From assembly GCA_002633005.1 (NCBI GenBank), contig NMRA01000486.1, positions 245,251-309,250 on the forward strand: a stretch of 64,000 nucleotides of DNA. The letters are read 5' to 3'. This document shows, piece by piece, positions 115 to 22,500 of this stretch. The first letter of the stretch is position 1. Each line of letters starts with the position of its first letter. This DNA is from Phoronis australis (taxonomy: Eukaryota; Animalia; Phoronida). Position numbers and translations under genes: made by a program. The notes under the pieces were generated by a model. That model saw only the letters and a program-made list of their open reading frames with translations, was not told the origin of the DNA and made no database searches.

Positions 115-3100
115 CTGGTCGCCACCTGGTGACTGTAAAGTCTTTTCCCATCGTTTTGAAATACTCGAGCCAAGCCAAAGTCTGCAATCTTTAAATGTCC
201 TGTAGAGCTAATCAACAAATTGGCTGGCTTTAAATCCTGCAAACAGATGTGCTATGCAGAAAACATTTTAAAATAAATGACACCTTTAGATTTTTTCACA
301 GAAAAGTTATTATTTAATAAAATGTTGTAAAAGAATAAACTATCAAACAACACAGCCAGAAATAAACGCGTAACCAACAATTCAAGAATACATTTGAAAA
401 TTAAAATGGTAATCCCAGTGTCAGTTTTCTCCAACATTAGAAACATGGCTCCATGTGTCAAGCTCGCTGTAATGTTGAGCATGCCCAAAAATCTGCACTG
501 TCTATTAAATTAAAATAAGTTTGGGTTAGTTTAAGAAGCCTATGAGCTCCATTACAAAGGTTGTTTCAGAACTTGAATTATTCCTTCAACAGAAAGTGAT
601 GCAAAAACACAACAGAATGGAACAATATTTGTCACTGAAATACATTCATGACATCATGTCCCAGCAAAATAGTCATACAAGTTCAATGTGCAACATTCAA
701 AAATAAACAACCACGAAAAAGAAGTGCTGATTCCAGGGTTCATTTCAAAAAGCTAGATTCATGTGAATTTTGTGAGATCATGCCAGATCACTGGCACATG
801 ATGATTTGAGTGACAGGTTAATAGTAAGATGGTGACCTCACTAACATACATCGTGAAGTGACAGCCACTGAAGTGATTGGTCGGCAAGGCTGCTATATTG
901 AATTATAGGGAAAAACTGTGTTTAAACGCATTATTTGTGTTCCACAGACTAAAGTTTCTCCCAGAAAATGGGCAACAGTTGGATGTAACGTGCCCACATT
1001 TTGAGAGCCATTTTTCCACTGAATAACTGGCATCAAAGTGGTTCTCAAAATCTCGACACGTTTTTTGCGACCATTGCCCTGAAAATGTCTGGCAAGTGCA
1101 TGGCATTACAGAACCTGTTCCAGTACTTACTCTGTGCATGATGTGGTTCTCATGGCAGAAGGCCACACCCTTCAGCAGCATCATCATATAACTCTTGATC
1201 TGGGCTTCAGTCAGGGGCTTTTCGGTATTACGTATCACCTCAGCCAGATCCGACAGCATGTAGTCAAAGACGAGGACAAAGCCAGTACCATGTGGAAACA
1301 CATCGCGTAACTTCACTACGTGTTGGTTCTCTTCAATTTCTTGTAAAGCTTTGATTTCCCTGTGTGACAAACATTAATCTGCATGCTGCAGTTGACTCAC
1401 TTCTGGCAAAATAGACTAACTTTTGGTTTAGACTCCCTGTGTGACAAACATTAACCTGCATGCTGCAGTTGACTCACTTCTGGCAAAATAGACTAACTTT
1501 TGGTTTAGACAGCTACTGCCATAAAAATGATGAGATCTTGTTCCTTATTCAGATTAAAAGTACGCCCTGAAGTTGGGGAAAACAGTCATCTCTTGCAGCC
1601 ATACTAAGAGCAATTTTTTAATTCTAAGTTAACTTTAAAGTTTTTCATTTTTGTTTGACCTGCAGTGCTGAGGACTTCAACATAACAAATTACAAGCGTG
1701 ACTAATATAAAAGCTGAAACCAGATTATCTTACAAGAGAAAGCATTATTTCAAAACAGTGGAATTTCAGAAGACCACCCAGAGCAAGTACAGATGGCATT
1801 TACAAGTCACTGTTCACAGCTGGAAAAACAGCAAGCATAAAAGTTGACAAAGTAGACCAATATATACCTGAGGGCGGTGTTTGGTACTCCTTCTTCCAAT
1901 TTACGCAGGGCAACCTTTTTAAGAGCGACGATGTCACCACTCTGCATAGAAACGGCAAGTTTAAATCACAGTGAGCATGTTAGTGTAAGCAGCTCAAAAC
2001 ATGTCATAGACCAGACATTACGTACATAACAGACATAATTCTCCAGGGTATTACGTAACTTTAATGAGGAGACAAAAATAAACAAGATAAACAGTAGCAT
2101 AGCAAGTGGAGCAAACTAGCTGGGGGGAGGGGTACTCCGCCATATTTTTTACTGGGTAGGGGCAGTGCAGAAGGAAAATTAAAAGACACACTCATTTAGA
2201 GAGTGGACTTGAAAAAACAGTTCTACCAGGAGAAAGTTACCCTTTTGTAAGGGTTGTTCCAGAAACATGACCCTTTTAATCCAAAAATTTGGTAAGACAC
2301 GTGTTGGCAAAATGAGTACAACATTTACAGCTGTAGCGGTAGTGTTAAATGCAGCGTTGTGTTTTATGTGTGTGGGGTGGATGACCGCTGGTGTCGACTT
2401 GACGGATAGATGCTCAGTCGTTTTGAAGTTTGGATATTTAAAAAGCAGAAGTAAAAGGAGATTCGAATTGATTAAAAATACATGCTAATTCACTGATGTT
2501 GTCAAAAATTACAAACAGTAGTTATGAGAAAGAATTTATCAGAGACTATGAAGCAACCCTAAAACTTTTAAACGAAACTATAGTAGACTTACAAGACGTC
2601 ACTCATGTTTTTAAGAGTCGGACTGGAGCGGGTTTCAAACCCCAGACAGCCCGCCAAAACTGCTTGTGCGCGGCTTTTTATAACTAAACGAATGCACGTG
2701 AGGGTGAGTCCATGACATGAGTGACGTAATGAAACACCCCTATATAGAAGAGTCAATTAATAAAATGGAGCGAAACTGTAACTCTATAATTCACAAAGGG
2801 AGGGCGCGCCCGTCACACTCCCCCAACCTCAGATCTAATGTAATTATTTAACATAGATCAAAATTATACAGTAGTGACAGTGAGCGACAACTTCAACTCG
2901 TGATAACAAGGTACTCAAGACAGTTTAAATGACATCAATAACTCTAGTAATTCACAAACACAAAGACCTGACCGGTAGGACCATAATAAAATAGAGATTA
3001 AATATATGCATAGAAAATGACAACAATTAACTCGGAAACGATTAACAACAACAATAACAACGTAAAACTTAAACACCAATAAATGCAACTAGAGTTCTCT

Positions 3101-4029
3101 CCCATTCCAACAATCGGCCTACGTCCCCACCAAACTTCTCTAACTCAACATCTTTGAAGGGTGCCCTCTCCCTATAGAGCTCGCCCATCCGGGCCACGGC
3201 ACCAAAAATGTAGCAGTGGTGTTAAATGCAGCGTTGTGTTTTATGTGTGTGGGGTGGATGACCGCCGGTGTCGACCTGACGGATAGATGCTCAGTCGTTT
3301 TGAAAAGAAGGAGTAAAAGGAGATTCGAATTGATTAAAAATACATTCTAATTTACTGATGTTATCGAAAATTACAAACAGTAGATATGAGAAAGAATTTA
3401 TCAGAGACTATGAAGCAACCCTAAAACTTTTAGACGAAACTATAGTAGACTTACAAGACATCACTCATGTTTTTAAGAGTCGGACTGGAGCGGGTTTCAA
3501 ACCCCAGACAGCCCGCCAAAACTGCTTGTGCGCGGCTTTTTATAACTAAACGAATGCACGTGAGGGTGAGTCCATGACATGAGAGACGTAATGAAACACC
3601 CCTATATAGAAGAGTCAATTAATAAAATGGAGCGAAAATGTAACTCTATAATTCACAAAGGGAGGGCGCGCCCGTCACACAACAAACATTTCAAAAATAT
3701 CCCAATGGGCACACCTAGTTACTTACCTTTACCTAGCGTTGTTGACCAACTGGTACCTCCAGTTACCTACCTCTACCTAGCATTGTTGACCAACTAGTAC
3801 ACCTGGTTACCTACCTCTACTTTGCGTTGTTGACCACCGGGTACCTCTAGTTACCTACTTATACCTAGCATTGTTAACCACCTGATACTTATATCAAGTT
3901 GCATACTTCTACCGAGCATTAATTGTTCACCAAGTGGCACACCTAGTTACCTACCTCTACATGCTTTGCCTTGTCTACAATTCCATGCGCACCTTCCCCA
4001 ATACGACACAAGATCAGATACTGATCCAT
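115..4029 (-). CDS. CDK20: Cyclin-dependent kinase 20 (CCRK), 5' part; coding exons 4029-3955, 1941-1868, 1359-1131, 236-115; gene continues beyond the window start
   Basis: Spliced translation [25 protein letters not shown]|[25 protein letters not shown]|[38 protein letters not shown]...HIMHR|[26 protein letters not shown]...YSHQVATR. The GEGAHG loop, PNTALRE helix, HRDLKPAN and DFG motifs are present. All introns are GT-AG and phases are consistent. Confidence 0.93.
1357..1510. repeat. 77-bp tandem duplication containing the CDK20 exon-3 splice acceptor
   Basis: 1357-1433 and 1434-1510 are near-identical (tccctgtgtgacaaacattaa...ttttggtttagac). Confidence 0.9.
2332..3679 (-). mobile_element. 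Non-autonomous miniature LTR retrotransposon (TRIM-like) in CDK20 intron 1
   Basis: Direct repeats 2332-2817 and 3209-3679 have TGT...ACA ends. A PBS TGGTGCCGTGGCCCGGAT (3204-3187) resembles the complement of the tRNA-His 3' end. A purine-rich tract GAGGTTGGGGGAG abuts the other LTR. The internal region is 391 bp with no gag/pol. Flanks are cagc/caac (4-bp TSD, 1 mismatch). Confidence 0.88.
3709..3960. repeat. Degenerate ~40-bp minisatellite built from the CDK20 exon1/intron1 junction
   Basis: About 6 units like acacctagttacctacctctacctagcattgttgaccaactggt; the last unit contains the real donor GTAGAG|gtaggtaac (minus strand). Confidence 0.8.
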
Positions 4030-6504
4030 AGATGAGATCATCCGACAGCTGCAGGTGGCACTGCAATTGTAACATGGTTTGATCAGTTGGAGGCATAATT
4101 CGGTGAAAAGCTTCTAGCATATGGATGGCCTATAGGATGGCCACTGTATCTACTGCAGCCAAATGAGACAATGGTACTGTCCAGGCGATACCTTGTGTGA
4201 CCTCACCTATGGCACCTATGCGCAAAAGGTACTTGAAGCAACAAGACATTAATGGTTTAACCAGTGTATGGCATAATTCGCCGAAAAGTTTATAACGAAT
4301 GGAAGGCCTATAGGATGGCCACCGTCTCTAAGGCCAGTTGAGATGGTGGTACTGTCTAGCCGACGAGTAGGCGATTACATCTCTGTGATATTATACCACA
4401 TAAAAAGTTACTCATGTCAAAATACAGTGAATAGCATTGAATGAAACATTCAGATATATAGTATTGTAGCCCCTGGCCCTAGACAACCAGCTGAGGGGCT
4501 ACGTGTTCCCGTCAAGCCCTGTACGCCTGTGCTGTGCCGTGGACGTGAGTGTGAATCAATCACTGACACTGGTCCATCACTCAATCAGTCAATGAATCAG
4601 ATCAGTGACACTGACAGTGTTTAAGATATCACGTTTCCACATTTTATCCTAATATTACCTATCTGTTATTGCAATAACATTGATTCAAAGACGTTGTAGT
4701 TCCACAGCAAAGTATTTTAAAATACTCTGTTCAGATGCTCATCAGCAATCCACACAATTTATCAAAACATCAACAACTGCCTGAGGACTGGTAAAGTTGT
4801 CAAGTACGCTCAGAAAGTTTCCGGTTTTGCTGGAATGCGCTCCCTCAATATTTGTCACTCGATTATTAGTTGTCGTTGGTTCACTTCTGTCGCTAGGATC
4901 GCAAGGGCGCGGTCAGACCAGACTGGCTGTTTGTTTCGTCCCTCATCCTACTTTAATGCCAGAATGACACAAATTGATTGTGAGCACACAGATCCAGAGA
5001 TCTGTTGCAATGAAAATGTCTTTTGTTTTTATTTCAGTGACATTGCCATTTTCATTGCAATGTAACAACCCGGCGTACAATTGCGGAATACCAAAATGCG
5101 AGTCTTGAAACTTTGTAAGCCCTTATTTCTGTTTTTTGTTTCATATCATGTAGGACCTATCTGAACTCATTTTCCCTTGTTTTTATTGAACATGCCTTTT
5201 CAAGTTGTTTTTTAGTTATCGAAACTGTTAGTCTGCAAATGTTTGTTTGACTATAAGATATATTTTTTTTATTTTTTTATTTCATTGGCTGTCAATAACA
5301 TAAACATACACATTAGTCAATTTTCAAATCTCATGGTGTTCAAAGCAAGTGTAAGAACGCTTGCTTGGTATAATTCGACTATATTGAAAACATTGATCTG
5401 GAAAAAAATTGAAACAAAACTGCGGCACAGTCATGAGAAAAGAACTCGAGAAGTACAGGTTTTATCAATGAGAAAAAACGTTAATGAGTACAATTAAGCT
5501 TGCGGTCCGTGAGAGTGGAAAATTATTCACGTTCACGTGGTTTGTAGCTACAAGTATGTAAGTGATCCGGTCACTCATCGGCTCAGTGAGCAAACAAGTG
5601 GCGGGACAACGTGAACTAGTGAAATCAACTGAGATACCTCCGGGCTTACTACGGAACAGAAAAAGTGGGCGTCAGTGGCCGGTTGCATGAAACAGTCCCA
5701 AATAGGGACTCAACTAAGGTCCCTAAGTCTTTTTGAATATTTGTGTCTTTATGGATTCATAGACACAATATTTTTCTATCACTTCATCTTTAGTATGAGC
5801 TCCTCTTTATTTAATGAATTGTTCAAATTCAAACTTTTTTCCAATTAGAATTTGATTTTACATTTTTTTTGTTCTTTATTTAGGCCTCACTTTGAATTAA
5901 ATTGACAGAAAAACACCACGTTGTGTTTCCACTTTTCAATAAGTAATGTATTTTGCTCGTGCATTTGGTGAAAATGAATATCAAAAAGACAATGTAAATA
6001 TGGCGTAATTGTTATTAGAGAAAATTAGTTCAAAGTTTAAAAAAAATAATTTGCTGGAACAGAGTTTGGCAAATAACAAAATATTTAAAATTCAAATTAA
6101 ACAGATTTTTGTTTGTTCTACATCAATACGAATCTCAATCTTTAATCTGGGTTCAAAAATCCTCTGGCCAAATCACCGCGTGTCCTTGCGTTATCTTACC
6201 GCGAAAAAAACTAATCGGTGTCCTCAGAAAAGTTTGAAACGTCGGAAATGAAATACCAATGATCTCAATGCGGCCTAGTTTCACTCCATTCCAAACAATT
6301 CAAAACCCATCAAAATTCACGGTATAAATAACAAGCGTCAACAATTTGAAATACTGCCATATGATCATTCTCACTTAAACCAGCAAGAGCGGGTCAGTGA
6401 AAAGTTGTCACAATTTTTCCAAAGACTGAGCCTGGCTATGGTTTTACCAGAGGAATCGTGATCTTGGCGGTGGGCGTGTGAGGGAAGAAGGGTCGCCCCC
6501 ATAA

Positions 6505-8038: not shown

Positions 8039-8920
8039 GAGGATATTTCTTAACTTCACTTTTTTATTCGCTTTTCTGCAGTTGTGCGCTGCAAAAAAAC
8101 TTTCCTGCAAACTCAACAATTTCTCAAAAAAATCAGAAATATTTAAGCTCAGAATGTGCAGTTGATTTAATCTGAAAATCATAATCCGTTTCCTTTGATT
8201 TGTTTTGGGTGGAGTGAGAATCTATTTTGAGTCACGCACTTGTTATCCCAGAATGCTTTGCATGATTTCAATTCGCTCGAGCAATTCAGCAATACTGATA
8301 ACCCCCCAATCGGCACCAATTGAGGTGTGGTCAGAAAACGGTCGAGTTGGATGGTTGCTTTTTGCGGGGATACACAGATTTATAGCCAGTTTGTAAAGGT
8401 ATGAAAGGTTTTGTATGTTTCAGGTGTCATGATACTACAAGATGCGGGAGCGATTAGATAAATTTTCTGAGCTAGGTTTCAAAAAATGGGCAACTTTGCA
8501 GTAACGGTTGAGTTTTAAACGGGGTCATTGTTGCTGAATAAGAGGAAGTTGCAAGTCGCCCGGTATTTATGAGCTTAGCTTCATCCCTCACTTTTTATCA
8601 CTGGCGGAAAAGTTTGTCTGTGTTTGCAGCGTTAAAACTGTCACTACTGGAAGCCAATATAACGTTTCAAGAGTCTTCGCTGTTGAAGTTTCGCATTCCA
8701 ATGTGTCCGCCATTTTGAAAATGACATCACCGGCAATTTTTCTCTCAGGAAGGGAAGTCTTGGCGGTTTTCTTGGTGTCCTAGTCTAGTGAAAATGTGCT
8801 TCCTGGTTCGAATTTTGTTACTGAGTACACGGTTCTCAAAATTGTCCAAAACCAGCGCAAGCTTGTGTGTGGAACTTGAAGTGAATGTGTAAATGCCTCG
8901 TTCAGCTCATTTCGAGGGCT

Positions 8921-9030: not shown

Positions 9031-11537
9031 GCTGACTTGTTTTACTCGAGATTTAGCCTGTACTGAAATTGAAAACTAGACAAACACAGTGGACAAAACT
9101 GGTTCTCTAAGTCAGGGACTGCATATCAAAACATAGTTGTTTTCAAAAGTCTTGACTTGCTTGCTTGATCTAGCACTTAAAGATGAATAAGTATTTATAG
9201 ACACTTGACAAGATAGTTTGCAGTATACACCGGTGACCTAAAGTCGCGAATATAAGCATAATAAGCAGTTGATTGTCATACTACCCAGTGTCCATTTGCA
9301 ACTGCTCATGTGATATCATGGACATATATCAGCCTTCACAAATATACGTATTTTGACAATCTTAATCCTTGTTTGTATCCGTAAGCAGAGTTTTAAAACA
9401 GTCGTTGATCGACCCTGGGACATTTTGATACATTGTTGAAGCTACCCCTGGAGCGCGTGTTTGAGTAAATCTGAACGATAAATATTTTCGAAAATGTATC
9501 CCAAAATGCACTAAAAGCTGTTTTTAAGATACATTTGAAAAAAGAAGCCAATCACTTGTTATCATATTGTGAATACGAACACGTCCAAGTATTCGTTTGA
9601 CATTTGTAAGCAGATTAACACTGGAAACTTCAACCCCAGGTGTCTCATTACCGCGCAGAAGAGGAAATAAGATCGTTCACGACTTTAGGGCACTCACGAC
9701 TTAAGGACTTCTGACGGTACATATGCCAAACATATGTGACCAGACATCCTCTAGTTCTTGATGAAAGTTGTAATGTACCCNCCCCCCGTTGTTGTGAAAC
9801 TTGCCTGGATTACCAACGAAACATCATTCCATACACATGACCTTCCAAGAAATCTGCTGTCCTAAATTATAGATATTCAGTTTCTCCTTTTGGCCCAATG
9901 TCCCGCGCACGTGCTCACTTCCTGAGGCACACTATTATCTAGATATGATCCTTCTGATTTCCTATGAATGTTTCCGACTCCCGTCTTTATACTGTCTGTA
10001 TGTTGAGTTCTTGAGCGGATGGGGCATGGCGACTCCGTGGCAACCTAGGATTTTCACCAGATCGCCAAATAAAATCTGAGATTGTTACTGTGACCTGCAG
10101 GCTGCCAAACCATGCCCTGTTCATTTTATTCAATGGGTAATACTGGTTCTCAATGTCAGACCACCAAAAGAGACTATATCCCCACCATTGTGCAGAATTT
10201 CTGCAAAAGATTACATGGGGAATACATGCTTTAATTAATCACATTTGCCTGGCCCTTTGAATGATGTCATCTACTAGAAAATGGGTCTAGAAGCTGAATC
10301 TTTACTAGCGTTAGACAACTCACCTGTTTTCAATGAGATATAATTTTGTCTACAAAATTCAAAACAAAAACTTAGCTGCGATCAACTGCTCTAATGTTGA
10401 GCCACTTTGTTCAATTTTTGATTGACTGTCTTGTCAATTGCAACTACGCAGCGCTTTTAGTGGTCTCTACCTGTGAAACGTTGTCCAACTTTATTCCTGG
10501 TGAATTTTGCAACATTTTAAGTTGTTTACTCATCTCACCGTTATCTCGGTGGTCCTAAACTTGATAGTTTCTTGAAATTGTGACCCAGTCTTCCATGCTA
10601 ATACTGCTTTTGGTCAGGATTCATTAAAACAGTATTCTTTTTTCTTGCTGCTCCACATTTTTTGTTTATTGCATAGGGGCCTACTATTTTCCAATCCATT
10701 GCAAGCGTAGTTGATTCCCTTATATTTTTCCAACTCTGTAGGGCAACTTTATACTGCGTTTGTTCACACATGGGTTAAGTATATGGGATAAGCCGCTTTA
10801 CATTGTCAACACTATCATGTCTGTTTGTCCTCATAGAACTTAATTATCTTTGTTATATACTAAACCAGGCGTTCATGTAGAAGACTTCCAGGGTGTCCAA
10901 ATGGACTTAATTTTCGACACCATGGTTAGGATGCCCCGTTTCAGCATTTGCCCTGTTCAATACTTGGATGGTCGAGTAAAAACAGCAAGGTGCATTTGTG
11001 TCTCTTTTAACTTGCTAACAGCAGCTTAGAAAGTTCACTGGCCTTATAAAGATAAAACAGTCCTAATGTTAAGCTTTCATTTAAATTAAGAGAAACTTAA
11101 TTGCAGACAGATGTCTCCACAGTTCCATTCTACACTATTGCAGTAATTTGATCAAGGGTCATAAAAACAGTCATTGGGGACACTGGTTTTGGAAAGGCTA
11201 GCACTGAAAGACTGGCAGAATCTCCTATGTTCAACGTTGAGCCTTTTAAGCCCTGTGCATGAAATAGTTTAAGTAATAGATGTGCCTTTTTGTACACAGA
11301 TAATCTTGTGTTGACAACTGCTATTGCTCAGTTGATGTTGCTCGGAACAATCGTGAAATGTGTTTATGTTGTCACTTCTCGGGTTAATTCTTTGAAATTC
11401 ATTTTAAGTTGTGTCGTATTTTTGGGTAGATAAGCCTCACGGTGTTGTTAGTGTGTGTTGGATGATGCATTATTGTTAGTGGATAGTGACGCACATCTGC
11501 AGTGATTGGTTGGATTTCATTATTTGTCATGCATCAA

Positions 11538-13015: not shown

Positions 13016-13444
<429 letters not shown>

Positions 13445-14098
13445 TAGTTACGAATAATCACTTCTTCCTATTGCTTTTTTGGTGTTGTGCACTTCGCCAT
13501 GCTAAGTGGGTGGTTCCTATCCTGTAAACTGGATCAGTCGTACAAACAAAACTTATGTGTGTAATTGTGTGATTGTAACATCACTGTGCGAGTGTTTTAT
13601 GCCATTTTGGAGCACAATGTTGAGTATTATCGCAGTGTTATCGTCGGCGATGTGTCCTTGGTTTCATTGGCGGTTCCGTTTCTCCTTGGTATATGTTCAG
13701 TGTCGGCTTGTCTCTACATGTTGTCTAACTATTCCAAACGCCACGACTCGGAAGCTTCAGTTTTCTGTGGATTTATTTTTTTCTCGTTTCTGGTGAGTTG
13801 TAAACTTTTCTTAGCATGCACTGTAAACAACCTGCATGCATGCTCTCCACTGCTCAGCATGCTTTTGTGACGTTATAGTTATGAAGCAAACCTTTCTGTC
13901 TACAGATTTGTACAAACAGAATGGAGATTACACATGAGCTCTCGCTTGCCAGTTCTTCCAATTCTCTTTCTAGCCTTTCCTTTTGCGTTCTCCGCAATGT
14001 CTTGAGTAATAACATTCGTGCATGACGGAACTTTGCTGAAAGTATGGTAATAATGCAAGTCTTGTTCTAACAAAGTGACTTCCATGCTGATATGTTAG

Positions 14099-14415
14099 CA
14101 GGGCCCTCAATCTCTTGATTTCGGGGCTAAGCATCGGCCCCATTCCCCTCTGAAAAAATATTGAAAAATACGAAATTCCCTTCATGGGGCCCAAAAATTC
14201 CTCTCGAGGTTCAAATCACTTGTAACTCACACAGGTTACAAATTGAATGAGCACAGAAAGTTAACTTTAGCTACTTGAGGCAGAGCCTATGAGGGCTTGC
14301 AACAGGGGTAGTGGGGGTGCTATTGATGGTGATTGGGGGTGTATAGTTTTCCCGTCGCCCCAAAAAAATTCTCTTCTCAGAAGGCACCTTTCCCCTCGAG
14401 TGATCGTGGGCCCTG
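14099..14415. mobile_element. MITE with CAGGGCCC TIR and 5-bp TSD GTTAG
   Basis: cagggccctcaatc ... gatcgtgggccctg flanked by gttag/gttag; homologous to 16445-16783. Confidence 0.8.
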
Positions 14416-15325
14416 GTTAGTCTGGTCAGCATTTTATGTCTCACATGCTTGATCGTGACTGAGATTGACATATGCATATGCTTGATCTTGTCTGTAGATA
14501 GTTGGCTGCCCTCTGTGGGTCACAATGTAGCAACAAATGATCACCACTCAACATTACTAGACAGTGTCAATTATTCAATGGATTGGTTGCTGGTGCTGTT
14601 TGCCATGCACTTCAGTGCCTGAATGGAGTGTGCAGTAGTGGGAATGTTGATAGAATACAGCTGCTGTCTTACCGCCCTGTATAAAATGAGTTAAGAATAG
14701 TTTACTGCAGTACAGTTCCTGAAACGCATGCAAGCTAAACTCGCTTGTGCTTTAACTGCCTTTATGTTATTTATGCAGTCTGTTTTTGAGTGCTTGTATG
14801 TTGTTCGAGTTAGTCTTGTTACTCTGTCTTAACTTTTTATGTCCAAATAAGAGAATGTTGTGCATAATGAATTTCTGAACAAACAATGAGTTGCCTTTGT
14901 CGATGTTTCGGTTTGCGATTAGTATATTATTTACGGCCATGTTGAAGTTAATCGTTCCAAGGATATTGGTGGTATTTTGTAGTTTCTTTTATTATTTGTA
15001 AATGTATTCACTTGTTGCCACTTGTCAACCACATCCATAAGGTGACCAGGCAAATCTTGGTTACTTCAGTTACATGTAATCTTTAATGCCTTTCACGTTA
15101 TTGTTTAAGTTTGAGCATATTTAAGGGTCTTCACTGAATGTAGAGTGTTTGTCTGTGTGGCGATAGGTTAACTGCAGTGGCCAACTTGAGTTACCCATTC
15201 AAAATATGTCTTTCTTTCTAAAAATCCACATTTTAAAGAACTTTTGAATTGGTAACCCATAGTCTGCTTGCAAACAAAACATCACTTTTGATTGGCGGGT
15301 AACTCAAGTCGACACTTTATTGCAG

Positions 15326-15748
15326 GTTGAACTAGCATTATGGGATACGGCGGGGCAGGAAGACTACGACCGTCTGCGACCATTGTCCTATCCCGATACT
15401 GATGTCATTCTCATGTGCTTCTCCATCGATAGTCCTGACAGCTTGGAAAACATCCCCGAGAAGTGGACGCCAGAGGTGAAACACTTCTGTCCAAACGTAC
15501 CCATCATTCTAGTTGGTAACAAAAAAGATCTTCGCAACGATGAAAAAACGAGACGAGAGTTGAGCATGATGAAACAAGAACCTCTGAAATACGATGAAGG
15601 GCGGGCAATGAGCGAGAAGATAGGGGCCACCTACTACATGGAGTGTTCAGCCAGGACGAAGGAGGGGGTGCGAGAGGTGTTCGAAGCTGCGACACGGGCT
15701 GCCATGAACAAGAAGAGGAAGAGGAAGAAGATTTGTCGATTACTATAA
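15326..15748 (+). CDS. RHOA: RhoA alternative terminal exon A (aa 53-192, polybasic tail, CRLL)
   Basis: ttgcag|GTTGAA phase-0 acceptor; [23 protein letters not shown]...GNKKDL...[35 protein letters not shown]; intact 423 nt. Confidence 0.92.
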
Positions 15749-16444
15749 ACTGACGAGTCATGGTGTAGTACAGTGCGCCCTAGTGTTGGTTGTGTACAGA
15801 CAGATGTGAACAGACTGGCTGTGTTAGTTGTTCTTGTCTTGTTGTCAATGCTTCCATTGAGCCACTCATCACCAGGCAGGTAGTGACTCAGCCTGCTGCG
15901 TTGTCGAGTGCTCCTGTTTCTGCTTAGCAGTTCGGCTATGTCCAGTGATGGTCCAGATGAATCGGTCTTCAACTGGGACGCGTTTCAGTAGAAGTTCATG
16001 CTTTTCCATTCCCTGTACTTAGGAAAACTGGAGTGTAAAGCCACACACACACTCTCTCTTTCTCTCTCTTTTACCAGACATTTGTTGGCGTGATCGGCGT
16101 AGTGTCGACATCTTTCTGTTTTGCTTTTGTTTTGCGAAATTTAAGTCACAGTGTAGATATAAACTACAATGCTAAATATTGAAATTATGAATGCAACATT
16201 TTTTGTCTTGTTTTAGTTGTTTGTTGTAATTATGTGGTAGTTGTATAATGTACTGTATTGTAAAATATTACCTTATGATTGAAACGGGATACCTGGTTCT
16301 TCTTTGGTCACACAGAAAATACTAGTGCTAGTATTATGCTGCTTGAATTATTTGACACAAGTGAATAAGCATCATCCTTGATTTCATTGTAACTACAAGC
16401 TCACTGAATGAACCAAAAGTAAGGCTGTGACGTCTGTTGCATAT

Positions 16445-16783
16445 CAGAGCCCTCAATCCCTCAATTTTGGGGCTGAATATTGGACCTTATTCTCCTATGA
16501 AACATTGAAAAATCACTCTAAATTCCCCTCACGATGCCCAAACTTCCCCTAAGTGATTGAAAAATTCCCCTCGAGGTTCATATCACTTGTAACTCACACA
16601 GGTGACAATTTGTAAGAGCACAAAATGTTATTTTTTGCTTCTTCAGGCAGAGCCTGTGAGGGCTTCCAACAGGGGTGCTGGGTGCTTTTGATGGTGATCG
16701 AGAAGTAGAATTTTCGCCTCGCCCCCAAAAAATCCCTCTCAGAAGGCACAGTCGCCTTCAATCTTGGACGAATGAGGACCCTG
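16445..16783. mobile_element. MITE of the same family as 14099-14415, independent insertion
   Basis: cagagccctcaatc ... atgaggaccctg; flanks catat/caaat differ from the first copy's TSD. Confidence 0.75.
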
Positions 16784-17829
16784 CAAATATACGTTCTACT
16801 CGTCAACGGTTCAGTTTTAGTCTTTATCTTAACATTTCATTGGTGATGTGTGAGTGATTAGGACTGCAAAATGCAATTTTTTTCTGAAATTATTATTTGC
16901 AGACCTGTAGTCTACGTATATGCATGTGTTTAGGTGCATGTATCTGCGTGGGAAGCCGTGTTCATATCCAGAACCTAGCTTATGCATCAGTGTATAGAAC
17001 CTTTCGAGTAGAACTAAGGAATAGTTTTTTTAAATTAGCGAAAGAAACTTCACGTACGTTACAAAATGGTGGACGTCTGTGTATTCAATTGAAACTATTA
17101 AATGACAAGTACACAGAATGTACAAAGCTGATGTTAAAGATGTGCATGTAAATATCTGCACGAAGCTGAGGTACTTGTGCGGATGTGCGAGACCAGCGAA
17201 AAAATTATTTGAGCAGCGCATTGTGCAGTAGTCTAAATACATGCAGACATGCCGCTATGGTTGGATTAACTACAGCAAATACTGGAACCTAACGTATTGG
17301 ATGGGCAAAGCTGTTTCCACATGGTTGATGATAACCGACTTGTTTTTGTGTAATATTTTACTGTGTCTTTAGTCTTGTTGAACACTACATTTTTGGTTTC
17401 TTAGGTGCATGTTTCATTAAATACATAGGTTTATGGGTTTCTGACAGCTTGGGTGGGCATCATGGCTTTCAAAACACTTTAAACAATCTATTGCTTAGGA
17501 ACTTGCGACTTAAAGAGGCTTTCATAAAAATCAACTGTAGATGGTCTACATTCTTTAATCGTGCATGTAATGTATGGCATGAAAGGTTGGATAAATCTAC
17601 AAATGTGGTTTGTTGGTTTGCAGCTGTTGCCTTTAGCTGCATTTCACAACCGTGTAATAAGGTTTTCTTACTTGACATTTGTGCTCCAAATGGTAAAATA
17701 CAAAAATGAATCCCTGCACTCGAAAGTTGAATGTGTTGGTTTTTAGTCCAACAAAGCATCTTTCAGACACTCGTTCTGCCATCATATCAAAAATAGTCCC
17801 GTTTTTGAATGAAGTTGGTTCCATTGCAG

Positions 17830-18252
17830 GTTGAACTAGCATTATGGGATACGGCGGGGCAGGAAGACTACGACCGTCTGCGACCATTGTCCTATCCCGA
17901 TACTGATGTCATTCTCATGTGCTTCTCCATCGATAGTCCTGACAGCTTGGAAAACATCCCCGAGAAGTGGACGCCAGAGGTGAAACACTTCTGTCCAAAC
18001 GTACCCATCATTCTAGTTGGTAACAAAAAAGATCTTCGTAACGATGAAGCCACGAAGCGCGAGTTGATGAAAATGAAGCAGGAGCCTGTCAGACCGGAAG
18101 AAGGGCGTGCCATGGCCGAGAAGATCAACGCGTATGCATATTTGGAGTGCTCGGCCAAAACAAAAGAGTGCGTTAGGGAAGTGTTTGAGACGGCCACCAG
18201 GGCTGCACTGCAGGTGAAAAAGAAGAAGGGAAAGGGCTGTTGCCTTCTGTAA
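17830..18252 (+). CDS. RHOA: RhoA alternative terminal exon B (aa 53-192, canonical RhoA-like, CCLL)
   Basis: ttgcag|GTTGAA phase-0 acceptor; ...[58 protein letters not shown]; intact 423 nt. No separate exon for aa 1-52 was seen between A and B. Confidence 0.94.
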
Positions 18253-19512
18253 TGGGTGTGAAGGTGGTGTGAACTTAATGGCTGAGAGTGGAGCCTGATT
18301 ACTGTACATGTGACAGACATGCAGCCAAATTGTAGTGCAGGGGTCAGCTCACTCTTGATGTTGTTAACTGTCAATCGTGCACTCTACAAGCATAGTATGC
18401 CAAAGGCTCTCTCCTCTCCGATATTTTATGGACTAAATAGACTTTGCTTTCTTGAATACACACATTGTTTATATATTGTTAATCTGAAGATCTGTCTAAT
18501 TCCTGTTGAATGAATATAACCAGTCTTAACTTCTCTTGCCTGGTCAGAAATCTAGTCCGATGGGAGGTCCTTGTTTGTAGTTACTGTGGCAACTAGCCCC
18601 TGGTTGACACTGCACAAGCATGCCAGGATTTGTGGTATTGCTTGGACAAAAACCACTGAATCCAGTGCTGCGCACAATTGTCTCAAGTTTCACACGTTCT
18701 TCCAGTTAAATCATTGTGGTTGATGTTCATTTAACATGTCGTCTTGATGGAGATGATTATTCTAAACCAAGAAAACGTGGGTTTACCATTGTTAATCTTT
18801 TTGTACATTCATGTCCAAAATAACAAACATCTATCTATATGGAATTATTTTGATTTTATATGTATTGTGAGAGAGGATTCAATCAGTGTAGTCTAGTAGT
18901 CTTTTTATTCCTAATTTAACCAATGTTTTGCATCTGGTGTAAGTTAACTAAATATATAGATGGTAAAATACTTTGTCATATTTCTCTTGTCCTCCAATGC
19001 TGGTGGCCCGTTTTCTTGTGCACCCAAAACACATGTGGGTTGGGTGCATGTTATTGCCTTGTCTCTGTCAGCCTTGTCTGGCCACCCAACGCCCTCCTCT
19101 CCTAACGGCTTAGATCTCTGTAAATTTGTTGCAGCTTTCATTGGGGGAAGCCGAAGCTGTTGACATGGGTTTTCGTTTTATGTTTAGATATATGCTTTCA
19201 GTGTGGACGCATCTCTGTGCACCAGGAATAACTCTGGAAGCCCCGCGTCACTGCCGCAAAAATAATTTAATTGGCGCATCGCGATTGCTTAATTCTAGCC
19301 CGTGGGGCTGGTTAAAATTCAAAGCAAACTGGGAACAATATGCTAACATGGCCGATGGGTCCTCCAAATTGAGCCATAGACTTGTGGGTCAAGGCGCCCA
19401 TGCCCACTTTCTGAAATGACCCCTGGTGTACATGGCGAGATTCAACGAACACATTTCAGACGTTAAGGTTATTTAATCCATGGTTCTGCTTGGTGTAGAA
19501 TATAATTTGTTC

Positions 19513-22500
19513 TTATGGCGGGCAAGCACATCCCACTGTATTGAAAGCTGATTTAACGTCGGGGACGTCATAATCTAACATCTCGGCTGCCGCTTCCATT
19601 TCGCACACACCTTGGTTAAAATCCATCCATTCGTACCAGAATAACTTGTTAGCGATACCAAATAACTTGAATGCCTTTATAACTCCCCATCCATCGGTTT
19701 TAGCAAGGATGCAGAATGCCTTCGAATAAATCCCGCTGCTCACGTGACCATTCATACCAGCCACGTATTGGTCGTAATGGTATATCATGGCCTGTGGAGT
19801 GTTAGCGGTGTAGTTACACATGCTTCTTACCAGATGACCGTGCGTCCATCTGTAACTGTCGTAACCTATAGTGAAGGTCACCGGGTCCAGTTGTTGATTG
19901 TTGGTGAAAAACTCCACTGCTAACGCACTGATGTCTGAAAAAGCTTCGTGAATTCCCCAGCCTTCGTTATGTGTCTCCAAGGAACAGCTCATGTCCGTGT
20001 AACCATGAGCAAGCTCGTGCGCTACGATATGCAGCGTTGTTAGCGGATAACAGCACCCTGTCGCGTTGCCATCCCCCAAGAATACTGCTTGGCCATTCCA
20101 AAATGCGTTTTCATAATTTTTGCGATAGTGAACATAGACGTCAAAAGGCGTTGGGAGAACTTCCTCGTCCAAGTATTGCAAGTATGCCAGTCGTGTCTGA
20201 TGAGCGAAGTGATGTGCGTCACTAAGCGGGGAATAACCGTCGTTCACAGAGTCGACAATGCCAGAGGAACATTTGAACGTGTATGGAGCTGTAGGCTTGT
20301 CTTCCGATCGGTATTTATTATTATAATGAAAAGTCTTCACGTAAGCTGTCTCAAGACTGCAGTAGGAACCGTTAGTCAACACGTCCAGTTGAAGGTACCT
20401 GCCATAGTTCTTTGAATAGGAATACTGCCCTGTCTGTAAAAGAATTATTTGAATCACTCGTAGTCGGGTAACACGAAGGTGGCGTGACAAAAGAAATGCG
20501 CGTAATTTTCTAACATATGAGGCGATAGAAAATGTTGACGAAGGCCCTAACAACGCAATGATAACGTTTGAGGGGGGGTCAAGCCTCCCGAAATACGCAT
20601 GGTGTTCAAGTGGCATGGGACTTACAATTGACAAGCCAAATGAAAGTCACTTTGGACGAGCATTTACTCATGACTCAATGCTGAAATTTTCAGATAATTA
20701 AGCCACAAAGTAAGTCAATGTTTGGATTTTTTCGGCTCGGCGTGGTGTTCTCTTTAAGACATAAACACTTGACGTGCTTTACTTATCATGGAAATGCATT
20801 ACATAGAGTCAGTTTGGCATTGTATGCAAAATCAGACATCGCTTAAGGCCAGAATTCAGAGTGTTCCAAATAGACCGACTCGGTTTGATTGAGGCTCAAG
20901 GCTGATTAGAACCACGTTTTCATGAAAACAAAGGTGTCAAAACCACGCAACCCTCGATTTTTTAGCAAATATTAAATGCGTTTAGATAAAATGAAAAACT
21001 TCATAAGCTTTTCAAAAATATGTATACTTAATTTTCATTTTATTGCCTGAAGTTTTTTATGTAGTATGTAACGCCACGTTAAAGGCCGGGGTTATTGTAA
21101 TTGCATCTATCCTCGAAGCGAATTTTTTATTTAGGCCACGAAGCCTACATGTAGTTGATTCTCGTCTTTGCCTAGATTCATTTCGATCTGGGCTTACCGT
21201 CTAAAAACCGACAGACCCCCATCAATTTTAGTGGAAGTCTCGTTTTCTGTTTTTGTTTTTGTTTCATTGTTTTTTTTTTTGAAAAATCTGCTCAAAGGCA
21301 CTTTAGCAAGGTTAGTAAGGTCTGAAACAGCATCGTTTGCCGGCGATGAATAAAAAATAACAATTGCCGGTCATTTTTTCTCGTCTCTGTGGATTTTCGT
21401 TCTTGAAAAAGTAGGCGCCTAAAAATACCACACCACCTACCGGATTTTCGAAGAAAACCACAGACCAAACGGCTTTTTGCCTTACCGCTCTAATATTGAT
21501 CTCAACTTATTCCACTGTACTCAGACGAGAAGTGATTTCTAGGTTTGCAAAGAACAAGCCTCTTATAGGGCCTGGTCGCAAGAAATAACGAATTATCTGT
21601 TCTTTCGAACCTTGAAATCATCTCCACTTTTACCACCGTATTGCCGCGCCATTAGGCCAATGGGCGTCTGTGTACATCGAACTGCGCATGCATGTGAGAC
21701 AGGTGCATGCGCCAATTATGCGTACCACTTGTGTAAAAAAGGCCGCGAAAAAAGACATAATTTCGGATATAGGCCCATGGGCCAAAAGGCGAGGCAATAC
21801 GGTAATACAAAACTACCAATTGTCTTGAAAATACACCTAGAAACAAGATACAGAGGCAAAGGTAAAAAAATGCCATAAGGAAGCCCAACGGTAGTCAAAA
21901 CGGGTGCGCCTATATTCGAATTAATGTGTGGGCTTATGTAGGGGACATTGCCTAGGCTTATATGCAAAACTTAGGCGCATGCGCCAATATGAGAACCAAT
22001 TATGTAAAAACAGGCCACTAAAAAGGTGTTATTTCGGATATATGCCCATGGGCCTAAAGGCCCGGCAATAAGGTAAAATAATAAATTGAGGCCAATTTCG
22101 TACTGTAAATGGTCTGAATCAAGTTATTTGTGATGGCAAGTGGGTTTATTGCCGCCTTAATATTTTGAATTATGAGTCACACCCATACATTCTTTCAATG
22201 TACTGCCTTTTCATACATCCAACAAACAACACCACAACTTTTTTTACAAAGCCCTGGAGATGTTTGATTCGCTTCAGTTTATTACTGGTACCATTCTCTC
22301 GTTTTACACACTTTTTAGAGGTTGAATTTGCAAAGTGCATAACTTAAGGAAATTAACCGTGAACTGTTTTCTTGAGACGGCAAACAGAGATGGACACCGT
22401 CTTTTGCAAAGTTGCTGGACCTTTTTGAGGCATAGTAATTAATGCCGCCGGCAGGTGCGCTACATTCGAGGAGCGAGATGAAAAATTTTCCGTGCGATAA

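Follow-up and report, generated by a model that had tools for sequence, protein, structure and literature searches.

A probable gene conversion tract between the two alternative last exons of a Rho GTPase gene in Phoronis australis

Introduction

Alternative last exons are known from genes for small GTPases. KRAS has alternative fourth exons that give the forms KRAS4A and KRAS4B (PMC9882654), and the ubiquitous and brain isoforms of CDC42 differ at the C-terminus and in localisation (PMC10883850; 10.1101/2023.02.27.528078). We describe a gene of this general kind in the phoronid Phoronis australis. It lies in a stretch of 64,000 nucleotides (nt) of contig NMRA01000486.1 (assembly GCA_002633005.1, positions 245,251 to 309,250, forward strand), which we call the window and number from its first letter. 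The gene encodes a RhoA/Rho1-type GTPase and has two alternative 3′-terminal exons, A and B, each encoding residues 53-192. The two exons share a block of 216 nt that we interpret as a probable tract of recent gene conversion.

The Phoronis gene resembles KRAS in having tandem-duplicated alternative last coding exons, which give its isoforms different C-terminal helices and membrane-targeting tails. The alternative exons of KRAS cover only about the last 40 residues, whereas the exons here make up about 73% of the protein and include switch II. We know of no identity tract between the KRAS exons. CDC42 is, like this gene, a Rho-family GTPase with two isoforms from alternative last exons. Its alternative exons are vertebrate-specific and concern a short tail only, whereas here the insert helix and the G5 region are alternative as well.

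Conversion between duplicated alternative exons has been described for Dscam arrays and newt sodium channels (PMC3236188; 10.1101/2021.03.25.437018). These systems share with the window tandem duplicated alternative exons that exchange sequence by conversion within one gene, but their exons are internal and mutually exclusive; the Phoronis exons are terminal, with their own poly(A) sites, and the tract is exactly the invariant half. In Schistosoma mansoni, the RhoA-type proteins SmRho1.1 and SmRho1.2 are the same in their G boxes and switch II, and most of the seven residues that distinguish them are C-terminal; one has HDAC8 as its partner and the other the formin Dia. They are paralogous genes from a recent duplication and not alternative exons of one gene (PMC8670706). 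In the literature searched, with subscription journals outside its coverage, we found no description of alternative Rho exons in invertebrates, and neither "splic" nor "exon" occurs in a review of Rho GTPases in early-branching animals (PMC7600811). The Phoronis gene is set apart by its large alternative unit, which is terminal and divides exactly into an invariant half that is homogenised and a variable half that is saturated.

Results

An identity block with a sharp end

Positions 15319-15534 and 17823-18038 of the window are the same letter for letter (0/216 nt different). Each copy of the block consists of 7 nt of intron acceptor (ATTGCAG) and 209 nt of exon. Mismatches begin with a C at 15535 against a T at 18039, the third base of the Arg122 codon. 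Codons 53-121 do not differ at any of their 207 nt, and codons 122-192 differ at 77/213 nt and 24/71 residues. A silent change is present in 26 of the 47 codons of this 3′ half that encode the same residue in both exons. The synonymous divergence (dS) of the 3′ halves is undefined by NG86, 1.75 by LWL85 and 4.9 by maximum likelihood, and their silent sites are saturated. The nonsynonymous divergence (dN) is 0.27-0.28; dN/dS is at most about 0.16, and both versions are thus kept under purifying selection.

The contrast with the tract is large. Its roughly 45 synonymous sites carry no change, which sets a 95% upper bound on dS of 0.06-0.07; past the tract, dS is 1.75 or more. If silent codon changes were as frequent as in the 3′ half, 69 codons would stay untouched with a probability of 7e-25. 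The maximum chi-square breakpoint between the exons falls at 15544. The block is bounded on both sides by paralogous sequence that is much more diverged or cannot be aligned. Upstream of the exons, homology stops 7 nt before the exon start; the 300 nt upstream, the 1000 nt upstream and the 3′ untranslated regions (UTRs) of A and B align no better than shuffled sequence (z of 0.26, 0.73 and -0.37, respectively).

An initial annotation, made from the letters of the window, had described this identity with its 7 nt of acceptor, many silent and replacement differences in the 3′ halves, and a boundary just past the NKKD motif. Each of these holds, the break lying at codon 122 and NKKD at residues 117-120 in an alignment to human RhoA (3tvd_A). 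The same annotation had called the flanking introns unalignable, which is right for the adjacent 1 kb only; further upstream, copies of a dispersed repeat align (74%).

Both copies in raw reads

Contigs were built from raw reads without use of the assembly and compared with the window over 15000-18400. Each of three DNA runs (X1, X2 and X3; 3/3) has one contig of exactly 216 nt with no alternative letters. The neighbouring DNA contigs stop at 15348 and 17852 and restart at 15505 and 18009, 30 nt inside the block ends, as expected of a word-graph assembler where two paths enter a perfect repeat and two leave it. Relative to its flanks, the 216-nt contig is 1.3-2.0 times as deep (10.9 against 4.3-7.3, 46.7 against 31.9-38.1, and 16.6 against 7.2-10.1), and no loose contig end in X1-X3 indicates a third copy of the block.

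RNA evidence comes from raw-read runs that carry the same species label. Contigs of one of them, X5, which belongs to an independent study, branch at 15505 and 18009 and match the contigs of the DNA runs. The X5 contig shared by the branches (17884-18038) has a depth of 1616, close to the sum of the two branches (401 and 1188). A single branching 216-nt contig in the reads means that the identity is not an artefact of assembly or polishing. The initial annotation had named a collapse of copy-specific differences as one way in which it could be mistaken, and no such collapse is seen.

RNA variants are listed in the coding part specific to exon B (18099, 18126) and along the B 3′UTR, and X5 has listed variants in the part specific to exon A (15595, 15613 and 15625). 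The B variants are dense: in about 700 nt of the B 3′ half and UTR (18099-18776), more than 25 single-nucleotide polymorphisms (SNPs) relative to the reference are among those listed. Two further RNA samples, X6 and X7, are homozygous for the alternative letters there, and a third, X8, is heterozygous, which suggests two well-separated haplotypes in this region.

Silent sites in other Rho sequences

As a measure of constraint, we set codons 53-121 against those of six other Rho sequences from public collections. Counting only codons for the same residue, those silently different from the 5′ half in the window number 44/68 (L049), 42/68 (L001), 43/68 (L002), 43/68 (L003), 36/62 (L005) and 36/67 (L004 copy 1), so other species differ at about 60% of such codons. 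Because the silent sites of the 5′ half are free to change elsewhere, the perfect identity in the window points to recent copying between the exons.

Two expressed alternative last exons

Exons A and B both have a reading frame of 423 nt that ends in TAA. In X6/X7/X8, the RNA depth is 326/234/838 over A-specific codons (bin 15491-15697) and 412/333/945 over B-specific codons (bin 17975-18181). It is 125-945 over the A- and B-specific coding parts and UTRs, against 0.1-21 in introns, and 325-1169 over the first coding exon (bin 13214-13420). Depth in the exon A UTR is 125-430 at first, drops to about 30-85 in bin 16112-16318 and is 3-11 past that bin. RNA joints run from the donor at 13351-13354 to the acceptors of A and B in similar numbers, and the expression of the two exons is comparable. 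Of the eight joints listed, none goes from A to B. With their separate 3′ ends, this makes A and B alternative last exons, which are used in a ratio of roughly 1:1 to 1:3.

The first coding exon contains the P-loop GDGACGKT (within 13199-13354). An upstream 5′UTR exon of the gene ends at about 8396-8398; a consensus of loose RNA read ends matches the window exactly at 8367-8396, with a donor (AG/GTATGA) next to it.

Protein class and isoform differences

Both 3′ exons match the Pfam Ras family (8e-34 for A, 3e-35 for B) and contain the G3 motif DTAGQ and the G4 motif NKKD, and GDGACGKT of the first coding exon is G1. The best matches among solved structures are chains of human RhoA (1.9e-75), followed by RhoC (7e-73) and, well behind, Rac1 (1.8e-49), which places the protein with the RhoA/B/C group and not with Rac or Cdc42. 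The first exon residue aligns to V53 of the human RhoA chain 3tvd_A, and the numbering is colinear. Residues 53-121 are identical to human RhoA (69/69), and A and B align without gaps through RhoA 124-136. These residues we take to be the Rho insert region, so that the break at codon 122 lies at its start. The tract thus spans the acceptor, switch II and everything up to NKKD, and stops at codon 122.

Beyond the tract, the isoforms differ in the insert helix (K126A, R128K, S132M and M133K), at residues 139-142 and 152-157, and next to G5 (SAR against SAK). Both tails have a C-terminal polybasic stretch and a CAAX box that ends in L, which by sequence is of the geranylgeranylation type; the ends are CRLL and CCLL. 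We predict that the isoforms, with a shared switch core, are likely to get different partners or membrane targeting. A difference in partners between A and B is also plausible by analogy with the two Schistosoma proteins.

Age of the duplication

Exon B is 94% identical to a cluster that holds the Rho proteins of Biomphalaria, Aplysia and Littorina, and the best database identity of exon A is 84-87%. B, the distal exon, is the canonical form. The proximal exon A is divergent, and at least one further species has an ortholog of it.

A query with the 3′ half of A recovered RefSeq models of 320-340 residues from Mya, Dreissena, Asterias and Acropora, and similar two-copy Rho models are present in Mytilus and Octopus. 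The two-copy models (P0236, P0237, P0238, P0239, P0218 and P0221) have two 53-192 units in a row, with [10 protein letters not shown] at the joint, and most likely represent two tandem alternative exons fused into one model. Exon B of the window has a donor-like CAGGTGA at 18211 that matches the joint of the fused models, and exon A is without one. Rho isoforms of normal length are annotated in Argopecten, Lingula, Patella and Littorina.

A tree was made from residues 122-180 (37 rows, 59 columns), with both Mytilus edulis copies and Octopus vulgaris copy 1 dropped as redundant. The 3′ half of exon A groups with P0240 and not with exon B (98/95). P0240 is a transcript-derived protein from another species, and it shares the unusual start MSSIRKK. 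The first copies of Mya and Dreissena form a group (98/91) that excludes the copy 2 exons of both, and Mytilus isoform X1 groups with an Azumapecten protein (100/99). On the resolved branches, 3′ halves group by exon and not by species; the exception is the coral copies, which pair weakly (95/64). The deep orthology of the proximal exons across phyla is left open by this tree, in which 21/33 inner branches are open on 59 columns. The protein of the 5′ half is invariant across the compared Rho sequences.

The saturated silent sites of the 3′ halves, the grouping by exon and the tandem pairs in other phyla all indicate that the A/B duplication is old. The initial annotation had also read the locus as an old duplication; in its reading, recurrent conversion would homogenise switch II and the nucleotide-binding core, and selection would preserve the differences in the insert helix and the tail. 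The A plus P0240 branch and the tandem pairs in bivalves, octopus, sea star and coral agree with the old duplication, the silent differences at 36-44 of 62-68 codons with a homogenised tract, and the RNA depths and dN/dS with two diverged halves that are both expressed and under purifying selection.

A scan of metagenomes with the A-specific half gave 48 loci, mostly transcript-like or distant. A tandem pair occurs in one of the 48 (L004), which is not a close relative. Three of the metagenome loci (L007-L009) have an intron of a Rho gene exactly between residues 121 and 122, a position that coincides with the end of the identity tract in the window. A scan of prokaryote genomes gave 10 loci, none of them with an exon pair; one of them, L049 (246-644), encodes a Rho of animal type with 92% identity to exon B, lies on a 1.3-kb low-coverage contig of a Microbacterium assembly and is presumably contamination. 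Viral collections yielded six Rho-like GTPases (L059-L064) that are 40-54% identical to exon B, several of them from bins labelled as giant viruses; they have no bearing on the exon pair.

Discussion

Recent non-allelic (intragenic) conversion between anciently duplicated exons is in our view the best explanation of the 216-nt block, with a probability of roughly 0.85. The invariant peptide of the 5′ half would leave the copies different there at silent sites only, and they would be similar enough to form heteroduplex. Copying one 5′ half onto the other would leave the protein unaffected. Pairing would fail in the introns and in the 3′ half (36% different) owing to their divergence, and the extension of heteroduplex would stop at them. 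A tract that overwrote the isoform-specific insert helix, the alpha-5 region or the tail would likely be removed by selection, and the tract would thereby be confined to the interval from the acceptor to codon 121. Lost homology and selection are both candidate causes of the 3′ limit, singly or together. Residue 121 is T in both Dreissena copies, and in Mya it is L in copy 1 and T in copy 2; both Argopecten isoforms have CPSVP. These are weak hints of exchange in other lineages, and such single residues may be parallel changes.

Several points weigh against conversion or narrow what it explains. The three DNA runs come from one sample and are possibly the source of the assembly itself. In the RNA of X6-X8 (three further samples, depth 180-630), none of the variants listed reaches 10% in either copy of the block, where reads fit both copies and rare or low-share variants could escape notice. 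The reads at the RNA joints 13351>15323 (157/116/422) and 13351>17827 (146/129/413) are likewise not assignable to A or B, as the first 209 nt are common to both. A signature of GC-biased conversion is absent: third-position GC is 0.54 in the tract, no higher than in the 3′ halves (0.63 and 0.66). A single recent event is enough for this genome, and recurrent conversion would go a step beyond it. Metagenome contig L004 (16 kb), from another animal, shows the architecture of the Phoronis gene without homogenisation. Its first coding exon lies at 3426-3581; its two 3′ units, at 4381-4873 and 5751-6338, have each acquired an intron or introns of their own, and the 5′ halves are 78% and 76% identical in DNA. 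By this comparison, conversion does not accompany the exon pair in general.

A single structural event could also have made a chimeric exon with a freshly copied 5′ half, by unequal crossing-over or by a recent partial re-duplication. One such event would suffice for 0/216 differences, and nothing in this genome demonstrates recurrence. Unequal crossing-over alters copy number and drags flanks along, however, and the window has exactly two copies, a unique spacer, and homology that ends 7 nt upstream of the exon. Distant animals have the same layout of two complete exons, and a recent rearrangement is not needed to explain it; we regard a structural origin as unlikely. A version in which the break marks a lost intron at 121/122 with recent re-duplication of the 5′ part was rejected, as complete paired 53-192 exons exist in distant animals. 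Still less likely is repair of one exon from reverse-transcribed, spliced mRNA of the other isoform. In its favour, the identity starts no more than 7 nt from the acceptor, and both mRNAs are abundant. The identity nevertheless enters the intron (ATTGCAG), and only its CAG matches the end of the upstream exon (CAAACAG); the absence of intron homology gives the same boundary without RNA.

Purifying selection on the nucleotides themselves, through splicing enhancers or RNA structure, might keep the 5′ halves identical without copying, and the SNPs listed in both 3′ halves, with none among the variants listed in the block in the three RNA samples, fit such selection. It would have to fix about 45 silent sites identically in two exons, though, and the silent differences from other species and the 22-24% difference between the L004 copies make it very improbable. 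We give equally little credence to an artefact in which genuine differences between the copies were collapsed. The window is draft sequence with runs of N (the nearest at 9781 and 31661), and the DNA runs may be the data behind it. Against this stand the variant-free 216-nt node with two entries and two exits in contigs built from reads, a depth of the shared node equal to the sum of both branches, and the agreement of RNA from other samples and two other studies.

A wider scenario may be considered, which we regard as doubtful. A and B might be an ancient, possibly pre-bilaterian module of alternative terminal exons in the founding Rho gene; cnidarians, echinoderms, molluscs and brachiopods would have kept it, and vertebrates and insects would have lost it. 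The module would provide two isoforms with a shared switch core and differing insert-helix and tail surfaces. Conversion would repeatedly reset the shared half in some lineages, with selection fixing its end at 121/122.

The process of conversion between duplicated exons is itself known, and this gene offers an unusually clear natural case of partial concerted evolution within one gene. One half of a duplicated exon is identical and the other is saturated, and the break falls at a structural boundary of a well-studied signalling protein. In many invertebrate Rho genes, three quarters of the protein exists in two alternative versions. For genome annotation, the fused Rho models of 320-340 residues appear to be a recurrent mis-model of automated prediction. 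For Rho biology, we predict two isoforms with the same switch II and a different insert helix, G5 neighbourhood and membrane tail.

Other features of the window

The coordinates of the gene and of the repeats in its introns are collected in Table 1. Copies of a dispersed repeat lie about 1.0-1.2 kb upstream of each terminal exon, outside the conversion tract. Their DNA depth is 20-300 times that of the flanks, many contigs run off from them into unrelated sequence, and chimeric RNA joints occur at them, with loose ends at the copy upstream of exon A. We had considered this shared intron block as a relic of the exon duplication and rejected it, as the high DNA depth marks a dispersed repeat.

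Table 1. Features of the Rho gene and its introns in the window
Feature	Position	Strand	Details
5′UTR exon, 3′ end	8367-8398	+	consensus of the loose ends of 369-1394 RNA reads before 13186
First coding exon	13187-13354	+	ATG at 13199; residues 1-52 (MSSIRKK...DGKQ); donor CAG/GTACTG
Dispersed repeat copy, intron upstream of exon A	14096-14387	+	74% identity over 316 nt to 16442-16749
Identity tract, copy 1	15319-15534	+	acceptor 7 nt and 209 nt of exon A (residues 53-121, 2 bases of codon 122)
Terminal exon A, coding part	15326-15748	+	residues 53-192, TAA; tail [12 protein letters not shown]; divergent isoform
Exon A 3′UTR	15749-16314	+	approximate end; X5 contig 16090-16314
Dispersed repeat copy 2, upstream of exon B	16442-16749	+	DNA depth 149-11400, flanks 4-38
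Identity tract, copy 2	17823-18038	+	acceptor 7 nt and first 209 nt of exon B
Terminal exon B, coding part	17830-18252	+	residues 53-192, TAA; tail [11 protein letters not shown]; canonical isoform
Exon B 3′UTR	18253-18970	+	X5 contig 18009-18970 runs into a stretch of A, the poly(A) site

Two exon-sized frames point to neighbouring genes. One matches a protein kinase domain (903-1370, minus strand, 1e-13) and the other a CUB domain (56780-57214, plus strand, 3.3e-14). Just downstream of the Rho gene, on the minus strand, there is an uninterrupted frame of 376 residues (19513-20643) that matches the thermolysin-type metallopeptidase domains Peptidase_M4 (4.9e-20) and Peptidase_M4_C (2.7e-18). 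The Peptidase_M4 family is mostly bacterial and fungal, and this intronless frame, found here in an animal, could have been gained by horizontal transfer.

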